A stretch of 64,000 nucleotides of DNA, taken from sequence record PV173775; one strand, written 5' to 3'. The DNA comes from Escherichia phage GEP001. The notes under the pieces were generated by a model. That model had not been told where the DNA came from. It was given only the letters and a program-made list of their open reading frames with translations, and ran no database searches. A program made the translations under genes and the position numbers. Positions 1,994 to 28,804 of the stretch are shown here, one piece after another. Every line of letters starts with the position of its first letter. The first letter of the stretch is position 1.

Positions 1994-2571
1994 AAGCGAG
2001 TACAGTACTTCAAATTGCATATTTAGTATCACAAGAATCAAAATGTTGCTCCTGGAAGGTAGGAGCAGTAATTGAAAAGAATGGACGTATTATTTCTACC
2101 GGATATAATGGTTCACCTGCCGGGGGTGTGAACTGTTGTGATTATGCTGCTGAGCAAGGTTGGTTGCTGAATAAGCCTAAACATACTATCATTCAAGGTC
2201 ATAAGCCCGAATGTGTATCGTTTGGTTCAACTGATCGTTTTGTTTTGGCGAAAGAACACCGTAGCGCGCACTCTGAATGGTCGTCTAAAAATGAAATTCA
2301 CGCTGAACTAAATGCGATTTTGTTTGCTGCGCGAAATGGTTCTTCAATTGAAGGTGCTACTATGTATGTAACACTTTCTCCTTGCCCAGATTGCGCAAAA
2401 GCAATAGCTCAATCTGGAATTAAAAAGCTGGTTTATTGCGAAACATACGATAAAAATAAACCTGGCTGGGATGATATTCTGCGAAATGCGGGTATTGAAG
2501 TGTTTAATGTTCCTAAGAAAAACTTAAATAAGTTAAACTGGGAAAATATCAACGAATTCTGTGGTGAATAA
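1990..2571 (+). CDS. cd: dCMP deaminase
   Basis: 193 aa; zinc-deaminase motifs HAELNAI and SPCPDCAKAI in translation; N-terminus MKASTVLQIAYLVSQESKCCSWKVGAV recognised from memory of T4 Cd. Confidence 0.93.
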   Translation: MKASTVLQIAYLVSQESKCCSWKVGAVIEKNGRIISTGYNGSPAGGVNCCDYAAEQGWLLNKPKHTIIQGHKPECVSFGSTDRFVLAKEHRSAHSEWSSKNEIHAELNAILFAARNGSSIEGATMYVTLSPCPDCAKAIAQSGIKKLVYCETYDKNKPGWDDILRNAGIEVFNVPKKNLNKLNWENINEFCGE

Positions 2572-2807
2572 TGAAATTTCGTTTGGTACAGCTCACAGCA
2601 ATTAGTTCTTATTCTAATGAGAACATTTCATTTGCTGTAGAGTATAAGAAGTATTTTTTCTCTAAATGGAAACAGTATTATAAAACTGATTGGACTAGTA
2701 TTGATAGGCCGTATAGTTGGAAATCTGATTTAGAAAAATGCCAAAAATTGCTTTCCACTCTTAAAGAACGTGGAACAACCCATATTAAAACTGTAATAGG
2801 TAAATAA
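2571..2807 (+). CDS. hypothetical protein, 78 aa (T4 31.2 position)
   Basis: ATG immediately after cd stop; position between cd and gene 31. Confidence 0.55.
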   Translation: MKFRLVQLTAISSYSNENISFAVEYKKYFFSKWKQYYKTDWTSIDRPYSWKSDLEKCQKLLSTLKERGTTHIKTVIGK

Positions 2808-3116
2808 ATGAAACTGACAACTGAACAAAAAGTAGCAATTCGTGAAATTTTGAAAACTAAATTGTCCATGGGGGTTTCAAACATAGTTTTTGAAAAGTCT
2901 GATGGTACTATTCGTACTATGAAAGGTACTCGTGATGCTGATTTTATGCCAACCATGCAAACCGGTAAATTGACTGAATCTACTCGGAAAGAATCTACTG
3001 ATATGATTCCAGTATTTGATGTTGAGCTTGGTGCATGGCGAGGTTTTTCTATTGACAAATTGATTTCCGTTAATGGTATGAAAGTTGAGCATTTGCTTCA
3101 ATTTATTGGTAAATAA
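2808..3116 (+). CDS. hypothetical protein, 102 aa (T4 31.1 position)
   Basis: ATG 2808 directly follows upstream stop. Confidence 0.55.
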   Translation: MKLTTEQKVAIREILKTKLSMGVSNIVFEKSDGTIRTMKGTRDADFMPTMQTGKLTESTRKESTDMIPVFDVELGAWRGFSIDKLISVNGMKVEHLLQFIGK

Positions 3117-3142
3117 ATGCTTTAAGAATTATTTGTTATTAT
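3116..3142 (+). promoter_or_regulatory. middle promoter (MotA box AATGCTTTA + -10 TATTAT, 12-nt spacer) for gene 31
   Basis: MotA box 3116-3124, -10 3137-3142; 28 nt identical to the copy at 62582-62609. Confidence 0.65.
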
Positions 3143-3172
3143 TAATTCATCTGTTAACAAAAAGGAAAAACG

Positions 3173-3508
3173 ATGTCTGAAGTACAACAGCTACCAATTC
3201 GTGCTGTCGGTGAATTTGTTATTTTAGTTTCTGAACCTGCGCAAGCCGGTGATGAAGAAGTTACAGAATCAGGACTTATTATCGGTAAACGTGTTCAAGG
3301 TGAAGTTCCTGAACTGTGTGTAGTTCACTCCGTTGGTCCTGATGTTCCTGAAGGTTTCTGCGAAGTTGGTGATTTGACTTCTCTTCCAGTTGGTCAAATT
3401 CGAAACGTTCCGCATCCTTTTGTAGCTCTGGGACTTAAGCAGCCAAAAGAAATTAAACAAAAATTCGTTACCTGTCACTATAAAGCTATTCCGTGTCTTT
3501 ATAAGTGA
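3173..3508 (+). CDS. 31: head-assembly co-chaperonin (GroES analogue)
   Basis: 111 aa; [14 protein letters not shown]...KAIPCLYK recognised from memory of T4 gp31; middle promoter 3116-3142 upstream. Confidence 0.9.
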
Positions 3509-3516
3509 TATAAATA
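3509..3516 (+). promoter_or_regulatory. late promoter TATAAATA upstream of rIII
   Basis: exact TATAAATA immediately after gene 31 stop. Confidence 0.55.
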
Positions 3517-3655
3517 ATAATATGAATTGGGTGTCGGAATAATAAGTTAACCGAACAATTCTACGTGGTAGTCTACAACTGAGAGATCTGTCGAAAGAAG
3601 ATGAAATTCAGAAGAACGTGACTACCGAGTTTTAATCTCTAATGAGAATTTTTAA

Positions 3656-3904
3656 ATGATTAAACAATTACAACACGCTCTTGAACTGCAACGAAACGCA
3701 TGGAATAATGGTCACGAAAACTATGGCGCATCTATTGATGTTGAAGCCGAAGCTCTTGAAATCCTGCGTTATTTCAAACATCTGAATCCTGCTCAAACTG
3801 CATTAGCTGCTGAGCTTCAGGAAAAAGATGAACTTAAATATGCTAAGCCTTTGGCTTCTGCCGCACGAAAAGCAGTTCGTCACTTTGTGGTAACACTGAA
3901 GTAA
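3656..3904 (+). CDS. rIII: lysis-inhibition accessory protein rIII
   Basis: 82 aa; MIKQLQHALELQRNAWNNGHENYG... recognised from memory; late promoter TATAAATA at 3509-3516. Confidence 0.85.
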   Translation: MIKQLQHALELQRNAWNNGHENYGASIDVEAEALEILRYFKHLNPAQTALAAELQEKDELKYAKPLASAARKAVRHFVVTLK

Positions 3905-4024
3905 GTATGATGACGGGTTTATGGTTATCCTGGTCGTTAAATATTCAAAAACCTATGTTCCCCTTGAGGGCTTGCGCAGGCAATGCCAATAAGTCCTGCA
4001 TTTTCATTTAAAAGAGAATTTATA

Positions 4025-4201
4025 ATGGCAAAACAAGCTAAAGCAAAGAAAGCAGTTGAAAAGAAAGTTGGTGATTCTAAACGCGCTGGTTACAAGCGTG
4101 GGTCGAACTCTCGTATCAATCAAACTGTTGAGAAGATCATGCGCCGAGCACGTGCGGTTCTTCGAGATGATGCTTCTCGTTTTGGTAAGCAGAAAGCATA
4201 A
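4025..4201 (+). CDS. small highly basic protein, 58 aa (T4 30.9 position)
   Basis: ORF-track entry 3983-4201 trimmed to internal ATG 4025 (MAKQAKAKK...); Lys/Arg-rich; followed by hairpin terminator 4205-4235; start choice uncertain. Confidence 0.5.
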   Translation: MAKQAKAKKAVEKKVGDSKRAGYKRGSNSRINQTVEKIMRRARAVLRDDASRFGKQKA

Positions 4202-4204
4202 GTT

Positions 4205-4235
4205 GAGGACTCCTTCGGGAGTCCTTTTTTATTTT
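4205..4235 (+). terminator. rho-independent terminator
   Basis: GAGGACTCC-TTCG-GGAGTCCT hairpin followed by TTTTTTATTTT. Confidence 0.8.
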
Positions 4236-4254
4236 CCAAAGATTGCACAAAGTT

Positions 4255-4284
4255 GTTTACAGTATGGTTCCTTTGTGATAGTAT
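4255..4284 (+). promoter_or_regulatory. early-type promoter (CACAAAGTTGTTTACA ... TAGTAT)
   Basis: GTTTAC 4255-4260, TAGTAT 4279-4284; follows terminator 4205-4235. Confidence 0.6.
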
Positions 4285-4311
4285 TATCTTACACAAACAA
4301 AGGAGAATAAA

Positions 4312-4644
4312 ATGAAAACGATTAATCTAAACGCTGCGGTTAAAACTAAATGCTTCAATGGTAAATATGATGAAACTATGTGGTTCTTAATGGCAGTTGA
4401 AGGTGATATTATTGAAGTAGAAACAACAGAAGGTATGGGAACAGATTTCACCTTTACAATTCAAGTTCATAATTTCTTTACTGGTTGGATTTATGAATTG
4501 AATACAGTAATCGTTGGAAAAATTGAACAAAATGAATCAGGTGAATGGTATTATGTTACAGCTCGCCAACGTGCCGAACGCTTAATTGAGAAGATGAAAA
4601 AAGTTGGTAAACTTGACATGCAACATTGGAAAGTAGTAAAATAA
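4312..4644 (+). CDS. hypothetical protein, 110 aa (T4 30.8 position)
   Basis: AGGAG ribosome-binding site upstream of ATG 4312; early promoter 4255-4284. Confidence 0.55.
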   Translation: MKTINLNAAVKTKCFNGKYDETMWFLMAVEGDIIEVETTEGMGTDFTFTIQVHNFFTGWIYELNTVIVGKIEQNESGEWYYVTARQRAERLIEKMKKVGKLDMQHWKVVK

Positions 4645-7094: not shown

Positions 7095-7363
7095 TGTTTG
7101 TTGTTCACACTATTTATGAAAATGAAGGTAATACTACACGTGATTATGGTCACGTAAATCAATTTTTTAGATGCAATCCAGAATTCCGAGCTCAAAAAGA
7201 CGAACGAATTTTTAAAAAATGTGTAGAGCAAGGTTTCATTTACGTCAAGCACTGGATGCAAGGAAATAAAGTTAGAACTACATATCATAAGTCTTTGCCT
7301 GAGCTTAATGATGAATTGATTTATAATAGAGCTGTAAATCAAACTCTGAAGGATGAACAATGA
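7094..7363 (+). CDS. hypothetical protein, 89 aa (T4 30.1 position)
   Basis: ATG overlaps upstream stop; ends in ATGA overlap with ligase start. Confidence 0.55.
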   Translation: MFVVHTIYENEGNTTRDYGHVNQFFRCNPEFRAQKDERIFKKCVEQGFIYVKHWMQGNKVRTTYHKSLPELNDELIYNRAVNQTLKDEQ

Positions 7364-8820
7364 TTCTTAAAATTCTGAATGAAATAGCATCTATTGGATC
7401 AACTAAGCAGAAGCAAGCAATTCTTGAAAAGAATAAAGATAATGAATTGCTTAAACGAGTATATCGTCTGACTTATTCTCGTGGGTTACAGTATTATATC
7501 AAGAAATGGCCTAAACCTGGTATTGCTACCCAGAGTTTTGGAATGCTGACTATTACCGATATGCTTGACTTCATTGAATTCACGTTAGCTACTCGGAAAT
7601 TGACTGGAAATGCAGCAATTGAGGAATTAACTGGATATATCACTGACGGTAAAAAGGATGATGTTGAAGTTTTACGTCGAGTTATGATGCGAGACCTTGA
7701 ATGCGGTGCTTCAGTATCTATTGCAAACAAAGTTTGGCCAGGTTTAATTCCTGAACAACCTCAAATGCTGGCAAGTTCTTATGATGAAAAAGGCATTAGT
7801 AAGAATATCAAGTTTCCAGCTTTTGCGCAGTTAAAAGCAGATGGAGCTCGGTGTTTTGCTGAAGTTAGAGGTGATGAATTAGATGATGTTCGTCTTTTAT
7901 CACGAGCTGGCAATGAATATCTAGGATTAGATCTTCTTAAGGAAGAGTTAATCAAAATGACTGCTGAAGCCCGCCAGATTCATCCAGAAGGTGTGTTAAT
8001 TGATGGCGAATTGGTATACCATGAGCAAGTTGAAAAGGAACCAGAAGGCCTAGATTTTCTTTTTGATGCTCCTGAAATCAGTAAAGCTAAAGAGTTTGCC
8101 GAAGTAGCTGAATCTCGTACTGCTTCTAATGGAATCGCCAATAAATCTTTAAAGGGAACTATTTCAGAAAAAGAAGCCAAATGCATGAAGTTTCAGGTCT
8201 GGGATTATGTTCCGTTGGTAGAAATATACGGTCTTCCGGCGTTTCGTTTAAAATATGATGTACGTTTTTCTAAACTAGAACAAATGACATCAGGATATGA
8301 TAAAGTAATTTTAATTGAAAACCAGCTAGTAAATAACCTAGATGAAGCTAAGGTAATTTATAAAAAGTATATTGACCAAGGTCTTGAAGGTATTATTCTC
8401 AAAAATACCGATGGATTGTGGGAAAATGCTCGTTCAAAAAATCTCTATAAATTTAAAGAAGTAATTGATGTTGATTTAAAAATTGTAGGAATTTATCCTC
8501 ACCGTAAAGACCCTACTAAAGCAGGTGGATTTATTCTTGAATCAGAGTGTGGAAAAATTAAAGTAAATGCAGGTTCAGGCTTAAAAGATAAAGCTGGTGT
8601 AAAATCACATGAACTTGACCGTACTCGCATTATGGAAAACCAAAATTATTATATTGGAAAAATTCTAGAGTGCGAATGCAACGGTTGGTTAAAATCTGAT
8701 GGCCGCACTGATTACGTTAAATTATTTCTTCCGATTGCGATTCGTTTACGTGAAGATAAAACTAAAGCTAATACATTCGAGGATGTATTTGGTGATTTTC
8801 ATGAGGTAACTGGTCTATGA
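7360..8820 (+). CDS. 30: ATP-dependent DNA ligase
   Basis: 486 aa; adenylation-site lysine in FAQLKADGARCF; MILKILNEIASIGSTKQKQAILEK... recognised from memory of T4 ligase. Confidence 0.95.
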   Translation: MILKILNEIASIGSTKQKQAILEKNKDNELLKRVYRLTYSRGLQYYIKKWPKPGIATQSFGMLTITDMLDFIEFTLATRKLTGNAAIEELTGYITDGKKDDVEVLRRVMMRDLECGASVSIANKVWPGLIPEQPQMLASSYDEKGISKNIKFPAFAQLKADGARCFAEVRGDELDDVRLLSRAGNEYLGLDLLKEELIKMTAEARQIHPEGVLIDGELVYHEQVEKEPEGLDFLFDAPEISKAKEFAEVAESRTASNGIANKSLKGTISEKEAKCMKFQVWDYVPLVEIYGLPAFRLKYDVRFSKLEQMTSGYDKVILIENQLVNNLDEAKVIYKKYIDQGLEGIILKNTDGLWENARSKNLYKFKEVIDVDLKIVGIYPHRKDPTKAGGFILESECGKIKVNAGSGLKDKAGVKSHELDRTRIMENQNYYIGKILECECNGWLKSDGRTDYVKLFLPIAIRLREDKTKANTFEDVFGDFHEVTGL

Positions 8821-9005
8821 AAGCTTACTTAGAAACAATTGTTATAGCTCAAAAAGAAGGTGGAGATGTTTCTACTTCTGTATCACAAGTCATTCTCGAA
8901 TTTGTAGATGCATATGCTTATAATAAATTTACAGAAACATTTGATGCCTATGAAAAAGGGCCAAAGTTTGAAATATATCGTACTCTCTTACCATTAGATT
9001 ATTAA
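8817..9005 (+). CDS. hypothetical protein, 62 aa
   Basis: ATGA overlap with ligase stop; hairpin 9004-9027 after stop. Confidence 0.5.
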   Translation: MKAYLETIVIAQKEGGDVSTSVSQVILEFVDAYAYNKFTETFDAYEKGPKFEIYRTLLPLDY

Positions 9006-9034: not shown

Positions 9035-9057
9035 GAATAAACACTAGAGAGGATATG

Positions 9058-11151
9058 ATGGAACTCATTACAGAATTATTTGACGAAGATACTACTCTTC
9101 CGATTACAAACTTAAATCCAAAGAAGAAAATACCGCAAATTTTTTCAGTTCATGTTGATGACGCAATTGAACAACCAGGCTTTCGTTTATGTACCTATAC
9201 ATCTGGAGGTGATACTAACCGTGATTTAAAGATGGGCGATAAAATGATGCATATTGTTCCTTTTACATTAACTGCTAAAGGTTCAATTGCTAAATTAAAA
9301 GGTCTCGGTCCAAGCCCAATTAATTACATCAATTCAGTTTTTACTGTTGCAATGCAGACGATGCGCCAGTATAAAATTGATGCCTGTATGCTTCGTATTC
9401 TTAAGTCTAAAACTGCTGGTCAAGCTCGACAAATTCAAGTTATTGCTGATAGACTTATCCGTAGTCGTTCAGGCGGCAGATACGTCCTTCTTAAGGAACT
9501 CTGGGATTACGATAAAAAGTATGCATATATTCTTATACATCGCAAAAATGTATCACTAGAAGACATTCCAGGAGTTCCAGAAATTAGTACCGAGCTCTTT
9601 ACTAAAGTTGAATCGAAGGTCGGCGATGTTTATATCAATAAAGATACTGGAGCTCAAGTAACTAAAAATGAGGCAATTGCAGCATCTATTGCGCAAGAAA
9701 ATGATAAACGTTCTGACCAAGCTGTAATCGTTAAAGTTAAAATTTCCCGTAGAGCAATTGCACAAAGTCAGTCATTGGAATCTTCTAGATTTGAAAGTGA
9801 ATTATTCCAGAAATATGAATCTACCGCAGCTAATTTCAATAAACCTGCTACAGCTCCTTTAATTCCCGAAGCAGAAGAAATGAAGCTTGGAATTAATTCA
9901 TTAGCTTCTAAAACTAAGGCAGCAAAAATTATTGCCGAAGGAACCGCAGATGAACTTCACTATGACTATAAATTCTTTTCAAAAAGTGATGTTAATGAAG
10001 TTTCTGAAAAAATTAAAGATGTAATTCTTAATGCGATTAAAAATGAACCAACTACTTCAATAAAATGTTTAGAGAAGTATGCAGCAGCTATTAATAAATT
10101 CTTTGAAGAATATAAAGATACTTGGCTTGATAAACATAATAAAACTCGTAAAGGGCAGCCAGATGAAGTCTGGGAAGAAATAACTAAAAATTCCTGGAAC
10201 GCAGCAAAAACTAAATTCCTCAAACGAATGATTTATAGCTTTTCTGGAATTGGTGCAGGTCCAATGATTGATATTACTATTGCCCGTGATGGTTCTAAAT
10301 ATACTCCATCACAAAAGCGCGGCATTAGAGAGTATTGTGGTTCAGGATATACTGACATCAATAATCTTCTTTTGGGTCGTTACAATCCAGAACGATATGA
10401 TGTAATGAGTGAAAAAGAAATTGAATCTGCGATAAATAATTTAGATTCAGCTTTTGAAAATGGTGACCGTATACCAGAAGGCATTACAGTTTATCGTGCT
10501 CAAAGTATGACTGCTCCTATATACGAAGCGCTAGTTAAAAATAAAGTGTTCTATTTCAGAAATTTTGTATCTACTTCTTTAACTCCTATCATTTTTGGAC
10601 GTTTTGGAATTACACATGCTGGTATCGGTCTTTTAGAACCAGAAGCTCGTAATGAATTAACAGTTGATAAAAATGAAGAAGGAATAACTATTAATCCAAA
10701 CGAAATAAGAGCGTATAAAGAAAATCCTGAATACGTTAAAGTTCAAATAGGATGGGCAATTGATGGAGCTCATAAAGTTAATGTTGTATATCCAGGAAGT
10801 CTCGGAATAGCAACAGAAGCTGAAGTAATTCTACCACGCGGATTGATGGTCAAAGTTAATAAAATAACTGATGCTTCTAATAATGACGGAACAACATCTA
10901 ATAATACAAAACTCATTCAAGCTGAAGTTATGACTACGGAAGAACTCACCGAATCAGTCATTTATGACGGTGACCGTCTAATGGAAACCGGCGAAGTAGT
11001 TGCAATGACAGGTGATATTGAAATAGAAGACAGAGTTGACTTTGCATCATTTGTTTCATCAAATGTTAAACAGAAAGCAGAATCATCTCTCGGAATTATT
11101 GCGTCTTGCATAGATATTACAAACATGCCTTACAAGTTCGTTCAAGGATAA
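9058..11151 (+). CDS. alt: ADP-ribosyltransferase Alt (capsid-packaged, modifies host RNA polymerase)
   Basis: 697 aa from second ATG (MELITELFDEDTTLPITNL... recalled T4 Alt N-terminus); STS motif (FYFRNFVSTSL) and E-x-E (EAEVILPRG); late promoter TATAAATA 9027-9034. Confidence 0.85.
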   Translation: MELITELFDEDTTLPITNLNPKKKIPQIFSVHVDDAIEQPGFRLCTYTSGGDTNRDLKMGDKMMHIVPFTLTAKGSIAKLKGLGPSPINYINSVFTVAMQTMRQYKIDACMLRILKSKTAGQARQIQVIADRLIRSRSGGRYVLLKELWDYDKKYAYILIHRKNVSLEDIPGVPEISTELFTKVESKVGDVYINKDTGAQVTKNEAIAASIAQENDKRSDQAVIVKVKISRRAIAQSQSLESSRFESELFQKYESTAANFNKPATAPLIPEAEEMKLGINSLASKTKAAKIIAEGTADELHYDYKFFSKSDVNEVSEKIKDVILNAIKNEPTTSIKCLEKYAAAINKFFEEYKDTWLDKHNKTRKGQPDEVWEEITKNSWNAAKTKFLKRMIYSFSGIGAGPMIDITIARDGSKYTPSQKRGIREYCGSGYTDINNLLLGRYNPERYDVMSEKEIESAINNLDSAFENGDRIPEGITVYRAQSMTAPIYEALVKNKVFYFRNFVSTSLTPIIFGRFGITHAGIGLLEPEARNELTVDKNEEGITINPNEIRAYKENPEYVKVQIGWAIDGAHKVNVVYPGSLGIATEAEVILPRGLMVKVNKITDASNNDGTTSNNTKLIQAEVMTTEELTESVIYDGDRLMETGEVVAMTGDIEIEDRVDFASFVSSNVKQKAESSLGIIASCIDITNMPYKFVQG

Positions 11152-11154
11152 ATC

Positions 11155-13212
11155 ATGGAACTTATTACAGAATTATTTGACGGCGCTTCGGCGCCGGTTG
11201 TTAACTTAAATCCTAAGCATAAAATACCTCAAATTTTTGCTATTCAAGCCGGTGAAGAAAGCGTGCTTCCTGGATTTAGATTTTGTACATACACCTCTGG
11301 CGGTGATACAAATAAAAACGTTAAGCCAGGCGATAAAATGATGCATATCGTAATGATAGGTGTTAATGAGAAACTATCATTAGTTAAACTTAAAAACTTA
11401 GGTGGAAATCCAATTGGTGTCATTAATGCGGTTTTTGATACTGCTCTTCAGACAATGAAACAGTACAAAATTGACGCATGCTTATTCCGCGTACTAAAGA
11501 GTAAAACAAATGGCGCAGCTCGACAAATTCAAGTTATTGCTGACCGTTTAGTACGTACTAAAGGAGCAGGTCGATATGTTCTTTTAAAAGAAATCTGGGA
11601 TTACGATAAAAAGTACGCATATATTATGGTTTACCGTAAAAATGCTAATTTAGAAGACATTCCAGGTGTACCTCCTATTTCAACTGAGTTATTCACAAAA
11701 GTTGAATCAAAGGTTGGTGATGTTTATGTAGATGTTAAAACAGGTAATGCTGTTCCTAAAGCTGTTGCTGTTGCTGCTTCTATTGCTTTAGAAAATGATA
11801 AGCGCACGGATCAAGCTGTTATTCAGAAAACTAAAATTAGTCGTCGATTAGCAGCACAAGCTCAATACTCTACTGTCGATGCTTCACTTCAGGGTGATAG
11901 CTTCGCTGCTAAGAAATATCAAGAGTTTGAATCTAAAGTTCCGGTATATAAAGCAGAAGGACCAATGAACTCCGGCGTTATTCAGGTTGGTTCAAACTTC
12001 AGCAAAGGAGCTATCGGTGGTATGAGAAGTGCTTCTCGTTTTAAATCTAATGATTATGAACTAGAAAGCTTCCGAAATCATATTGCATTGGCTCATGCAC
12101 GTTTACGTGATCCATCTATCAAGTTACAGAGCGATATAACATATCAAGGTTCTCAAGAATATTTAAAGAATAAAGAATTTTTTGATTATAAAACTGATAA
12201 AATTTTAAGCGATCTTGCTGACATTAATATTTCTAATAGCTTTGATGTTATTAAGAAAATTGTCAATGATTTAGTTAAAGGTTCTAAAGCCACACCAGAT
12301 GAAAAGGTAGCTATTGTTCAATTTGTCATGAATGGCATTTATAAATTGATTAATGAGTCTGCTTCTCAAGCGTATGAATATGCAAGTACTGAAGTACCCC
12401 CAAAAGGATTAACTCAAGCTGAGTCTGATGTAATTGAAGATTATTGCGCAGATTCATATGTTGAAATGAACTCGTTCCTTTTAGGTAAACCAGATTCTAC
12501 TCGTGAAGAATATATGGAACGAGCTATTAAACACATCGAGACAATGGATTCTGCTTTTGCCAAAGGATCAGTTCTTCCTCCAGGAACTACGCTTTACCGT
12601 GGCCAAGAAGTTACCTTTAAAACTTTACGTCATAATATTGAAAATAAAATGTTCTATTTTAAGAACTTCGTATCCACATCGCTTAAACCAAATATCTTCG
12701 GTGAGTATGGTAAAAACTATATGGCCCTAGATGATTCCGGCACAGTATTTTCTGGTGAAGGAGAAGGTTCAGTTGATGCTGAAGATTTGATGCATATGGG
12801 CAGTCATTCTGCGTATGCCAATGAAGATGCTGAAACTAGCGTTGGTATGGTAATTAAAGGAGCTGAGCGAATCAAAGTTATCGTTCCAGGTCATTTATCA
12901 GGATTTCCATCAGAAGCTGAAGTTATTTTACCGCGTGGAATTTTGCTGAAGATTAATAAAGTGAGTACGTACATGATGAAAGAAACTGCTTATAACAAGT
13001 ATCTAATCGAAGGCACAATCGTTCCTCCTTCTGAACAATTAGAAGAATCGGTATATGATGGTGACCATCTGATGGAAACTGGTGAAGTTCGTCCAATGAC
13101 TGGATTTAACCAATTCCTTGTAGAAGAATCAAAAGAAGAGGAAAACGAAGTTTCTCAAATCTTGGCTTCTTTGGTTAACATCAACGGAATGTCTAAAAAG
13201 TTCAAGATGTAG
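11155..13212 (+). CDS. Alt-paralogous ADP-ribosyltransferase, 685 aa
   Basis: N-terminal ~230 aa closely parallel to Alt (MELITELFDGASAPVVNLNPKHKIPQIF...); STS (FYFKNFVSTSL) and E-x-E (EAEVILPRG) retained; central region unrelated. Confidence 0.8.
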   Translation: MELITELFDGASAPVVNLNPKHKIPQIFAIQAGEESVLPGFRFCTYTSGGDTNKNVKPGDKMMHIVMIGVNEKLSLVKLKNLGGNPIGVINAVFDTALQTMKQYKIDACLFRVLKSKTNGAARQIQVIADRLVRTKGAGRYVLLKEIWDYDKKYAYIMVYRKNANLEDIPGVPPISTELFTKVESKVGDVYVDVKTGNAVPKAVAVAASIALENDKRTDQAVIQKTKISRRLAAQAQYSTVDASLQGDSFAAKKYQEFESKVPVYKAEGPMNSGVIQVGSNFSKGAIGGMRSASRFKSNDYELESFRNHIALAHARLRDPSIKLQSDITYQGSQEYLKNKEFFDYKTDKILSDLADINISNSFDVIKKIVNDLVKGSKATPDEKVAIVQFVMNGIYKLINESASQAYEYASTEVPPKGLTQAESDVIEDYCADSYVEMNSFLLGKPDSTREEYMERAIKHIETMDSAFAKGSVLPPGTTLYRGQEVTFKTLRHNIENKMFYFKNFVSTSLKPNIFGEYGKNYMALDDSGTVFSGEGEGSVDAEDLMHMGSHSAYANEDAETSVGMVIKGAERIKVIVPGHLSGFPSEAEVILPRGILLKINKVSTYMMKETAYNKYLIEGTIVPPSEQLEESVYDGDHLMETGEVRPMTGFNQFLVEESKEEENEVSQILASLVNINGMSKKFKM

Positions 13213-13241
13213 TTTACAAGTCCCTCGTGTTGTGTTATAGT
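13212..13241 (+). promoter_or_regulatory. early-type promoter
   Basis: GTTTAC 13212-13217, TATAGT 13236-13241; upstream of ORF 13273. Confidence 0.55.
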
Positions 13242-13272
13242 AATTTTACTTACATAACATGAGGAACACAAA

Positions 13273-13563
13273 ATGAAATCTTCTTTGCGCTTTTTAGGTC
13301 AAGAACTTGTAGTTGAAGGCGTTATTCCTGCTGATAATGCTTTTAATGAAGCAGTTTATGATGAATTTATCAAAATTTTTGGAACAGATAAAAAGTTTGG
13401 AATTTTTCCTTCTGAAAATTTTTCAAAGCCACAGCAGACTGAAAGCATTTTCCAAGGTGTAGTAACAGGTAAATTTGAGTCAGAAGCTCCGGTAAAAATT
13501 GAAGTTTATATTGAAGACAGTTTAGTTGCTTCAGTTGCTGCTTTTATTTCATTCCGTAAATAA
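13273..13563 (+). CDS. hypothetical protein, 96 aa
   Basis: GAGGA ribosome-binding site 13261-13265; own early-type promoter 13212-13241; bidirectional terminator 13566-13596. Confidence 0.55.
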   Translation: MKSSLRFLGQELVVEGVIPADNAFNEAVYDEFIKIFGTDKKFGIFPSENFSKPQQTESIFQGVVTGKFESEAPVKIEVYIEDSLVASVAAFISFRK

Positions 13564-13565
13564 AA

Positions 13566-13596
13566 ATATGGGGACCGAAAGGTCCCCATTGTTTTA
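13566..13596. terminator. bidirectional terminator between 96-aa ORF (+) and gene 54 (-)
   Basis: 9-bp stem ATGGGGACC-GAAA-GGTCCCCAT with T-runs on both strands. Confidence 0.75.
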
Positions 13597-14559
13597 TATT
13601 GCTCCTAATATTTTACTTTGCGAGTTGACAATTCCCGTCATAGTATTAATGTTTGAAATGCTTCCAGCAGTTCCTCCTAATCTACTAAGTCGTGAAAGCG
13701 AATTAGATAGTCCAGTAACGCCTCCGCTATTTCCGAGAACGCTTTGAATGCCATTTATAGCAGCAGATTCAAGCCACTCAAGCGCAGCTTGTCTATCAAC
13801 TGCTCCAGCCTGCATAACTCTATACGCAAAAGTAACATCAAATGTAGTTATTTGGTTATCTCCATCATATGATAACTCAGGAGCGCTCACTGACACTGGA
13901 ATGCATCCGGTGAACATCACTGCAGTATGAGGTAATCCATTACGAGCATGAAGATTAACTTGAATATCTGCCTCGACATCTTGTGGTAAAGCACGCAGTC
14001 CAGTTACTGGGTCTTGAACAGAGTTAACCCAGTCTTGCATTGCACGATAGTTACATGCTTCTGAATCCATTCTAAATGAAATAACCAAAGGGTCTAATTC
14101 TCTCCCAGTTATACGAATATTAGGAGAATTATAGTTCCAGTCAGTTTCATAGGATAATCTATTCTCTGGCATTTTTACAGAATATATCATCAATCCAGAT
14201 GAGTTATATGCCATGTTAAAGAAGTCAATTAAATATGTACCAACTGTAAATGAGCCCAATAAACTTTGAACTGTACGTTGACTCATGGCACCAATAAGAT
14301 ATTTACTAACCCCTGATTTTCTTATCAGTTTTTGTGTGCCAGCTGTAATTAGCGTGGTAATTCCCTGATTAATATCGCCTTGAGTCAATCCTAACCAATC
14401 TGAATTTAGACCCAAGTTATTATAAGAAAAGTTGCTAATTGAACTTATCAACGAAGAGCTTTTAGTTGATGGAGTTGTCGCAAAAACGCAGCTAAACATA
14501 TTATTACGTTGGAAATCTGCGTTTATTGCTTGATTATTAAATTCCTCTAAAGAATACAT
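13594..14559 (-). CDS. 54: baseplate tail-tube initiator
   Basis: 321 aa; length, position and sequence match recalled T4 gp54. Confidence 0.9.
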   Translation of the reverse strand: MYSLEEFNNQAINADFQRNNMFSCVFATTPSTKSSSLISSISNFSYNNLGLNSDWLGLTQGDINQGITTLITAGTQKLIRKSGVSKYLIGAMSQRTVQSLLGSFTVGTYLIDFFNMAYNSSGLMIYSVKMPENRLSYETDWNYNSPNIRITGRELDPLVISFRMDSEACNYRAMQDWVNSVQDPVTGLRALPQDVEADIQVNLHARNGLPHTAVMFTGCIPVSVSAPELSYDGDNQITTFDVTFAYRVMQAGAVDRQAALEWLESAAINGIQSVLGNSGGVTGLSNSLSRLSRLGGTAGSISNINTMTGIVNSQSKILGAI

Positions 14560-28442: not shown

Positions 28443-28472
28443 GTTTACAGCAAGGTTATCACATGTTACTAT
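28443..28472 (+). promoter_or_regulatory. early-type promoter (AAAGTTGTTTACA ... TACTAT) for the 88-aa ORF
   Basis: GTTTAC 28443-28448, TACTAT 28467-28472. Confidence 0.6.
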
Positions 28473-28502
28473 AGACCTATCAAAAACATGAGGAGATTAA
28501 AA

Positions 28503-28769
28503 ATGAACAAGTTAAACTTTATTCGTACTACTCTGTCCGCTCTTGATAAAGACATCAAAGCCCTGGTAGAAAAATATGGTTCCAATCCTAACGGTAATGC
28601 AGTGAATGCCCTAGTTAAGAAATATGAAACCATGGCTTATGCTACTGACTTCTGGTGGAACGGTGAATATTCTACCCATACCAAAGACAAATCTGGTAAC
28701 TGGCTGAAAATCCAAGAAAATCGTATTGACTTCCGTGACATCATCAACCGTCGAGTTAAGATTGCGTAG
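28503..28769 (+). CDS. hypothetical protein, 88 aa, on opposite strand between head genes 24 and 23
   Basis: AGGAG 28491-28495 then ATG 28503 (ORF-track ATG 28488 lies inside the ribosome-binding site); own early promoter 28443-28472; hairpin 28783-28804 downstream. Confidence 0.6.
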   Translation: MNKLNFIRTTLSALDKDIKALVEKYGSNPNGNAVNALVKKYETMAYATDFWWNGEYSTHTKDKSGNWLKIQENRIDFRDIINRRVKIA

Positions 28770-28804
28770 TATAGAAACAAGAATGGGAGACCGAAGTCTC
28801 CCAT
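28770..28804 (-). terminator. terminator downstream of major capsid gene 23
   Basis: 9-bp stem ATGGGAGAC-CGAA-GTCTCCCAT; on - strand followed by TCTTGTTTCT. Confidence 0.7.

Follow-up and report, generated by a model that had tools for sequence, protein, structure and literature searches.

The early cassette between the Alt genes and gene 54 of Escherichia phage GEP001 is a T4 alt.-3 unit independent of the Alt paralogue

The subject of this study is a small early cassette of Escherichia phage GEP001 (sequence record PV173775), analysed within a stretch of 64,000 nucleotides of a Tequatrovirus genome (the window, in whose coordinates and strands all positions below are given). The gene order in this part of the window is DNA ligase (7360-8820), alt.1 (8817-9005), alt (9055-11151), a second Alt-type gene or Alt paralogue (11155-13212), the cassette gene, and the convergent genes 54, 48 and 29. 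The cassette itself consists of a T4-type early promoter of the sigma-70 class at 13212-13241 (+), a GAGGA Shine-Dalgarno sequence at 13261-13265 (+), which lies 7 nucleotides (nt) 5' of the start codon, and an open reading frame (ORF) of 96 amino acids (aa) that runs on the + strand from the ATG at 13273 to the TAA at 13561-13563. It is closed by a bidirectional intrinsic terminator at 13568-13589, a hairpin with a 9-bp stem and a 4-nt loop that is common to the cassette gene on the + strand and to gene 54 on the - strand. There is little room between these elements and their neighbours: the -35 hexamer of the promoter overlaps the TAG stop codon of the Alt paralogue by one base, and the hairpin fills the 30-nt gap between the convergent stop codons of the cassette gene and gene 54. 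A first-pass annotation of the window had described this unit and had proposed, from its position beside two injected ADP-ribosyltransferases, that the ORF encodes a partner of the second Alt-type enzyme or another accessory factor. Overall, the observation is confirmed and the interpretation is partly supported, in that the cassette is real and the idea of an Alt partner is unsupported.

The cassette ORF, whose coordinates hold, is the orthologue of phage T4 alt.-3, an already catalogued gene. Its product is 99% identical to Alt.-3 of T4 (NP_049808, UniProt P39493), the same alt.-3 annotation being used in T4, PP01 and RB32, and it matches the Pfam family DUF5498 (PF17602) over its full length (213.2 bits, the cut-off being 27; E 5.3e-64; residues 1-96 aligned with all 96 profile positions) as well as phrog_1739, which is labelled 'unknown function' (E 3.6e-44). 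The gene occupies the orthologous position, after alt and convergent with gene 54, as it does in PP01, T4 and nine other genera, and a 601-nt query around the ORF matched 500 phage records at 90-99% identity. Compared with T4, the coding sequence differs by 12 nt, 11 of which fall at third codon positions, and a single residue is changed (Q54 here, E54 in T4). The nonsynonymous and synonymous divergence (dN 0.004, dS 0.20) give a dN/dS of about 0.02. The third-position bias, the single amino-acid change and this low ratio establish alt.-3 as a real coding gene under strong purifying selection.

The T4 locus resembles the present one in the 96-aa product, the slot between the alt region and gene 54, the promoter and the terminator. 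It differs upstream, where T4 retains only two short remnants (alt.-1 and alt.-2) of the Alt duplicate and a full-length Alt paralogue stands here, and in the left arm of the terminator, which reads ATGGGGACC here against ATATGGACC in T4 and is 2 nt longer here. The first-pass annotation had considered that the ORF might prove to be a known alt-flanking ORF of T4 with an established and unrelated function. It is indeed catalogued, as alt.-3, but an established function does not come with the name; literature searches for DUF5498 and P39493 gave no papers. With this identity, the cassette gains its right place as T4 alt.-3, for which a catalogue entry, a Pfam domain of unknown function, omics data and essentiality data exist.

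The expression signals are those of a T4-type early unit, that is, a sigma-70 promoter with a GTTTAC -35 element and an extended -10 element on the early strand. By direct reading, the -35 element GTTTAC lies at 13212-13217 (GTTTAC(A) to 13218) and is followed, after a 17-nt spacer, by the extended -10 element TG-T-TATAGT at 13233-13241. A consensus scan gives the pair 10 of 12 matches in addition to the TG, and transcription is predicted to start at about 13248. Sites of the form GTTTAC-N16-18-TANNNT occur 8 times in the window against 2.47 expected, a count that no shuffle reached, and all 8 lie on the + strand, the early one in the orientation of the window. The 90 nt 5' of the start codon were aligned for ten loci of different T4-like genera (this window, T4, Dhakavirus, Mosigvirus, Marfavirus, Kanagawavirus, Gelderlandvirus, Kagamiyamavirus, Citrobacter phage Ursula and Karamvirus). 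In this alignment, neither GTTTACA nor TGAGGA varies at all and the TGnTAnnnT -10 element is conserved, with a spacer that is free to vary.

At the other end of the gene, a terminator scan found six G-C pairs in the stem of the hairpin and T-runs on both strands. The hairpin is predicted to fold at -21.9 kcal/mol (z -6.8) when read on the + strand and at -19.3 kcal/mol (z -5.1) when read on the - strand, and 0 of 200 shuffles folded as well. Moreover, the stem is kept by compensatory changes across the ten loci (GGGGACC/GGTCCCC, GGAGAGC/GCTCTCC, GGGAGCC/GGCTCCC). The excess of early-type sites, the conservation in ten loci and the compensatory stem changes argue that the signals of the cassette are functional rather than coincidental, and they bear out the early-type promoter, the GAGGA ribosome-binding site and the strong bidirectional terminator of the first-pass annotation. 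Neither a late promoter (TATAAATA) nor a MotA box is visible by direct reading in 13100-13272, and expression of alt.-3 from such an element was rejected. The T4 gene is classed as early for RNA and early for protein, and its product was detected by mass spectrometry (PMC9697503, Tables S2 and S4). The conservation of the signals and the T4 omics data together show that the alt.-3 cassette is a complete and autonomous single-gene immediate-early unit on the early strand, lodged between the Alt genes and gene 54.

The encoded protein is small (10.7 kDa) and acidic (isoelectric point 4.8). An AlphaFold2 model built from a 37-sequence alignment (A2) has a mean pLDDT (predicted local distance difference test) of 95.8 and a pTM (predicted template modelling score) of 0.84. 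The modelled chain is a compact alpha/beta arrangement in the order strand-strand-helix-strand-helix-strand-strand, with strands at residues 2-7, 10-15, 41-46, 71-80 and 83-95 and helices at 22-36 and 53-64. Across the family (alignments A1 and A2), E11, F24, F50, G66, E71, F91, F94 and R95 are invariant, with M1, S3, R6, P46, P73 and K96 close to invariance, so that almost all members end in ...AFxxFRK. The protein of the window has all of the family-invariant residues as well as the C-terminal FxxFRK. Members of the Kanagawavirus type, Enterobacter-phage homologues such as P0012-P0026, have an acidic insertion of 13 aa (SFDTFNSADELPEPD; A2 columns 113-129) in the last beta-hairpin loop; no other large variation in length occurs in the family.

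Homology and structure searches, which the first-pass annotation had suggested, have been run; they led to T4 Alt.-3 and DUF5498 and to no significant relative in the PDB. A word-indexed protein search returned few relatives from a single query, and a multi-genus alignment was needed to reach more. An exhaustive hidden Markov model (HMM) search among 1.84 billion representative proteins found 24 proteins at E<=0.001. The end-to-end profile matches in this search are 93-114 aa long, and the remaining hits are either short fragments or long proteins. Four of the long ones (398-1924 aa) align only in a few separate short segments and were judged spurious as homologues; otherwise the search extended the family by just a handful of phage proteins. 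The family is narrow. The gene is detectable in 836 phage records, and every context examined is a T4-like phage of Enterobacteriaceae. PDB chain sequences gave no match to the 37-sequence profile even at E 10, and the best Foldseek hit against the PDB has an E of 0.078 and a template modelling (TM) score of about 0.28. The PADLOC defence models did not match Alt.-3 either, and no significant sequence or fold match was found among known defence and anti-defence families (PADLOC-DB and solved anti-CRISPR structures). Structural matches in BFVD are only to uncharacterised proteins of T4-like phages. Among the closest known systems, a small alpha/beta phage protein has 68 residues that are superposable with Alt.-3.

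How alt.-3 relates to the Alt enzymes was approached by comparing alt.-3 loci across sampled T4-like phages, the remainder of the argument being based on counts. The gene accompanies two full Alt genes in this window, in Dhakavirus IME08 and in Citrobacter phage Ursula, and a single Alt in Mosigvirus ZQ3, Marfa, Kanagawavirus IME523, Kagamiyamavirus EcS1, Karamvirus KaAlpha and Gaprivervirus VR7. A diverged homologue fills the alt.-3 slot beside a single Alt in Klebsiella phage Roth76 (hhalign probability 94.5%) and in Tegunavirus fHe-Yen9-01. The fHe-Yen9-01 homologue has weak hhalign support, but a protein of Yersinia phage TG1, taken by us to be of the same genus, matches through its BFVD model at a TM score of 0.80. 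Salmonella phage Melville has alt.-3 together with a frameshifted Alt (the record carries the note 'confirmed by Sanger resequencing'), and T4 has it with only the alt.-1 and alt.-2 remnants of the duplicate. Aeromonas phage Riv-10 has two Alt genes and no ORF before gene 54. In Krischvirus PHB13, where Alt is present, the slot holds an unrelated 170-aa ORF, which was rejected as a diverged Alt.-3 homologue at an hhalign probability of 0.3%. Acinetobacter phage Apostate lacks alt.-3 and has its Alt on the late strand after gene 54. The Apostate gene (Twarogvirinae; 2501-4582 of the locus compared, directly after genes 29-48-54) seems to belong to the late operon of the baseplate, which is the reverse of what is seen in Tevenvirinae.

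The counts agree with these comparisons. Alt was found at 1773 places in 1220 records, so that a second copy can be present in at most 553 records. Within Tequatrovirus, the two-Alt region is covered to 80% in only 281 of 542 records, and the Alt paralogue is often missing. In the same genus, Alt.-3 is 92-100% identical and the Alt alleles form identity classes of about 99% and about 70%. Further, in T4 the alt RNA belongs to the middle class and the Alt protein to the late class, against early and early for alt.-3, and neither Alt.-1 nor Alt.-2 was detected as a protein (PMC9697503, Table S2, column order verified). It is evident from these data that alt.-3 is independent of the number of Alt genes and of the Alt paralogue.

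The first-pass proposal, that Alt.-3 is an immunity protein, chaperone or modulator of the Alt paralogue, or more loosely a partner of the injected Alt, is unsupported because co-occurrence fails, the counts agree and the timing of expression in T4 differs; we consider it quite improbable. What it has in its favour is that alt.-3 always lies immediately 3' of the last Alt gene in Tevenvirinae and that a protein made early would in principle be able to act on Alt injected with the DNA. Moreover, a gene for a small acidic protein placed directly 3' of an ADP-ribosyltransferase gene is reminiscent of the immunity and chaperone partners of secreted or injected ADP-ribosyltransferases. Unlike these partners, however, Alt.-3 neither co-occurs nor co-varies with the enzyme, and instead of being co-expressed with it has its own promoter and, in the literature data on T4, another expression class. 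The gene persists beside one Alt, a frameshifted Alt or mere Alt remnants, and it is absent from the Alt-bearing Riv-10 (with two copies, contrary to the suggested co-occurrence with the second Alt-type gene), Apostate and PHB13. Within Tequatrovirus, Alt.-3 stays at 92-100% identity, the Alt alleles split into two classes and the paralogue is often missing. Adjacency is of little weight, since the whole block from ligase to gene 54 is syntenic. The speculative tie between alt.-3 and the duplicated toxin-like Alt enzymes is thereby removed.

Published work on T4 provides phenotypes for alt.-3. Knock-down by CRISPRi-ART had no fitness effect ('Not Fit'; PMC11879866), and HIDEN-SEQ found 19 of 19 TA sites disrupted, classing the gene as non-essential (bioRxiv 10.1101/2025.11.20.689424); a second published phage transposon study holds no alt.-3 data. 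T4 with alt.-3 deleted is viable, with no change in CmdTAC defence and no escape, and ectopic wild-type Alt.-3 does not activate CmdTAC (PMC11618068). When T4 was evolved on CmdTAC (Vassallo et al.), all five replicate lines carried Alt.-3 extended at the C-terminus to 110 or 117 aa, and it is this longer form, as opposed to the wild-type one, that relieves CmdTA toxicity and protects the antitoxin CmdA from ClpP-dependent degradation (PMC11618068). Two alternative frames through the T4 terminator give tails of 13-14 and 20-21 residues past the alt.-3 stop, which the lengths of 110 and 117 aa would fit. As the left arm of the terminator is 2 nt longer in the window, other tails are available past the stop there (13558-13660, +), of 15, 21 and about 60 residues, and the frameshift tails of the T4 escape type would correspond to those of 21 and about 60 residues. 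Judging from these frames, the escape route through extension of alt.-3 may behave differently in this phage.

It is tempting to read the escape lines as a sign that Alt.-3 natively targets the ClpP-dependent proteolysis or chaperone-addiction machinery of the host, the extensions strengthening or redirecting an existing activity. The recurrence of the extension in five of five lines, the stabilisation of CmdA and the near invariance of the native ...AFxxFRK, which implies that the C-terminal end matters to the protein, speak for it. Yet the wild-type protein fails both to activate CmdTAC and to rescue CmdTA toxicity, its deletion leaves the defence unchanged (PMC11618068), and two unrelated tails from two frames both work. 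Because both work, the escape suggests a non-specific, neomorphic effect of a tail, for instance a degron-like hydrophobic one, on an abundant early protein, and it opens no window onto the native function; a native Clp-directed role is judged unlikely. That Alt.-3 is a small enzyme, with S3, E11, E71 and R95 forming a catalytic site for a small molecule or nucleic acid, is a very improbable alternative. In its favour, a number of charged or polar residues do not vary between genera whose proteins otherwise share 35-60% identity, but searches of Pfam, PDB sequences and Foldseek revealed no similarity to any enzyme fold or family, and the register of the secondary structure suggests that E71 with R95 and R6 with E11 could be partners at strand ends, so that they may be mere structural salt bridges. 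A reading of the ORF as fortuitous, or of the segment from alt to gene 54 as a non-coding spacer, has only the small size to speak for it and was rejected, its likelihood being practically nil in the face of the selection on the codons, the match to a curated Pfam family, conservation in at least 10 genera, the confident predicted fold and the detection of the protein in T4 proteomics (PMC9697503).

The reading that we prefer is that the cassette is the T4 alt.-3 orthologue in an autonomous early unit, and that its product is a host-binding accessory for takeover or counter-defence; taken as a whole, this statement appears moderately probable. Host sigma-70 RNA polymerase would start at the dedicated early promoter that overlaps the stop codon of the Alt paralogue, the strong GAGGA site would drive translation of the 96-aa DUF5498 protein, and transcription would end at the hairpin, which serves the convergent late gene 54 as terminator too. 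Most likely, Alt.-3 would then bind a host protein stoichiometrically within minutes of the start of infection, as an accessory for host takeover or counter-defence that is not needed on laboratory E. coli and has no immunity or chaperone role towards Alt. The functional class, a host-directed binder, is proposed more tentatively, as a serious possibility; it is suggested by a protein that is small, acidic, well folded, non-enzymatic in appearance and early, that occurs only in the phages of a single host family and that is not required on K-12. A candidate conserved surface is formed by the charged invariants R6, E11, E71 and R95-K96 and by the free C-terminus ...AFxxFRK, which is itself near-invariant. 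A more specific version, in which Alt.-3 is a fold with no solved relative that serves as an immediate-early inhibitor of a host system (a defence, or the Clp/chaperone-addiction axis) with FRK-COOH in its interaction surface, is a rather doubtful possibility; if true, such a surface would explain why extension creates a new anti-CmdTAC activity.

Several points weigh against the preferred reading. The binding mode and the surface patch of Alt.-3 are putative, being drawn from sequence conservation alone. Further, alt.-3 was not among the reported hits of T4 transposon screens against RexAB, RnlAB, CBASS, DarTG1 and DarTG2 or in minimal medium (bioRxiv 10.1101/2025.11.20.689424). The adjacency to alt, conserved throughout Tevenvirinae, also leaves room for a looser link to that enzyme.

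The genes that flank the cassette were characterised as well. The Alt paralogue (11155-13212, +, 685 aa, TAG at 13210-13212) matches PF03496 and phrog_802 and is 41% identical to Alt (9055-11151) overall and about 70% identical in the first 240 residues. It keeps the YR, STS and EAE (R-S-E) catalytic motifs and is probably, by these motifs, an active ADP-ribosyltransferase whose central and target-binding part has diverged. Gene 54 (13594-14559, -, 321 aa, stop at 13594-13596), identified from the ORF list and the syntenic annotation of PP01 and T4, encodes the baseplate tail-tube initiator. The small gene alt.1 (8817-9005, +, 62 aa) matches PF24647 'Phage blade protein' (E 2e-29), and in Enterobacter phage IME523 the orthologue carries the annotation of a GnsA/GnsB-type toxin; its place next to the ligase gene is conserved in most loci examined.

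Elsewhere in the window, the cassette at 28443-28804, which the first-pass annotation had likened to the present one, does have the same promoter-ORF-hairpin layout: GTTTACA, 17 nt, TACTAT, ACATGAGGA, an 88-aa ORF at 28503-28769 (+) and a hairpin. The protein of that ORF is unrelated to Alt.-3, has no Pfam family and is sporadic in distribution, being found in only 119 phage records, mostly of Dhakavirus; it is up to 98.9% identical to a protein of Dhakavirus JS98 and absent from most Tequatrovirus genomes. This pattern suggests a mobile early-gene module exchanged between genera. The shared layout is that of the generic T4 early 'promoter-ORF-terminator' module and is no evidence of related function. 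Six further early-promoter-like GTTTAC-N16-18-TANNNT sites, all on the + strand (841, 4255, 4647, 58008, 60787 and 61153) and mostly with a GTGATA-type extended -10 element, mark other early transcription units in the window.

Finally, T4 has small immediate-early, host-directed proteins with promoters of their own, among them Arn, Dmd, Stp, the IPI*-type counter-defence factors and AsiA. Neither a sequence nor a fold relationship of Alt.-3 to these proteins was found, and the likeness is an analogy of lifestyle rather than membership. Should a native target be found, Alt.-3, a strongly conserved and strongly expressed early protein, would become one more T4 host-takeover or counter-defence factor and, on present evidence, no new class of system. 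The features it has in common with this group are a size of about 10 kDa, an early promoter, dispensability on laboratory hosts and an occurrence in T4-like phages only.

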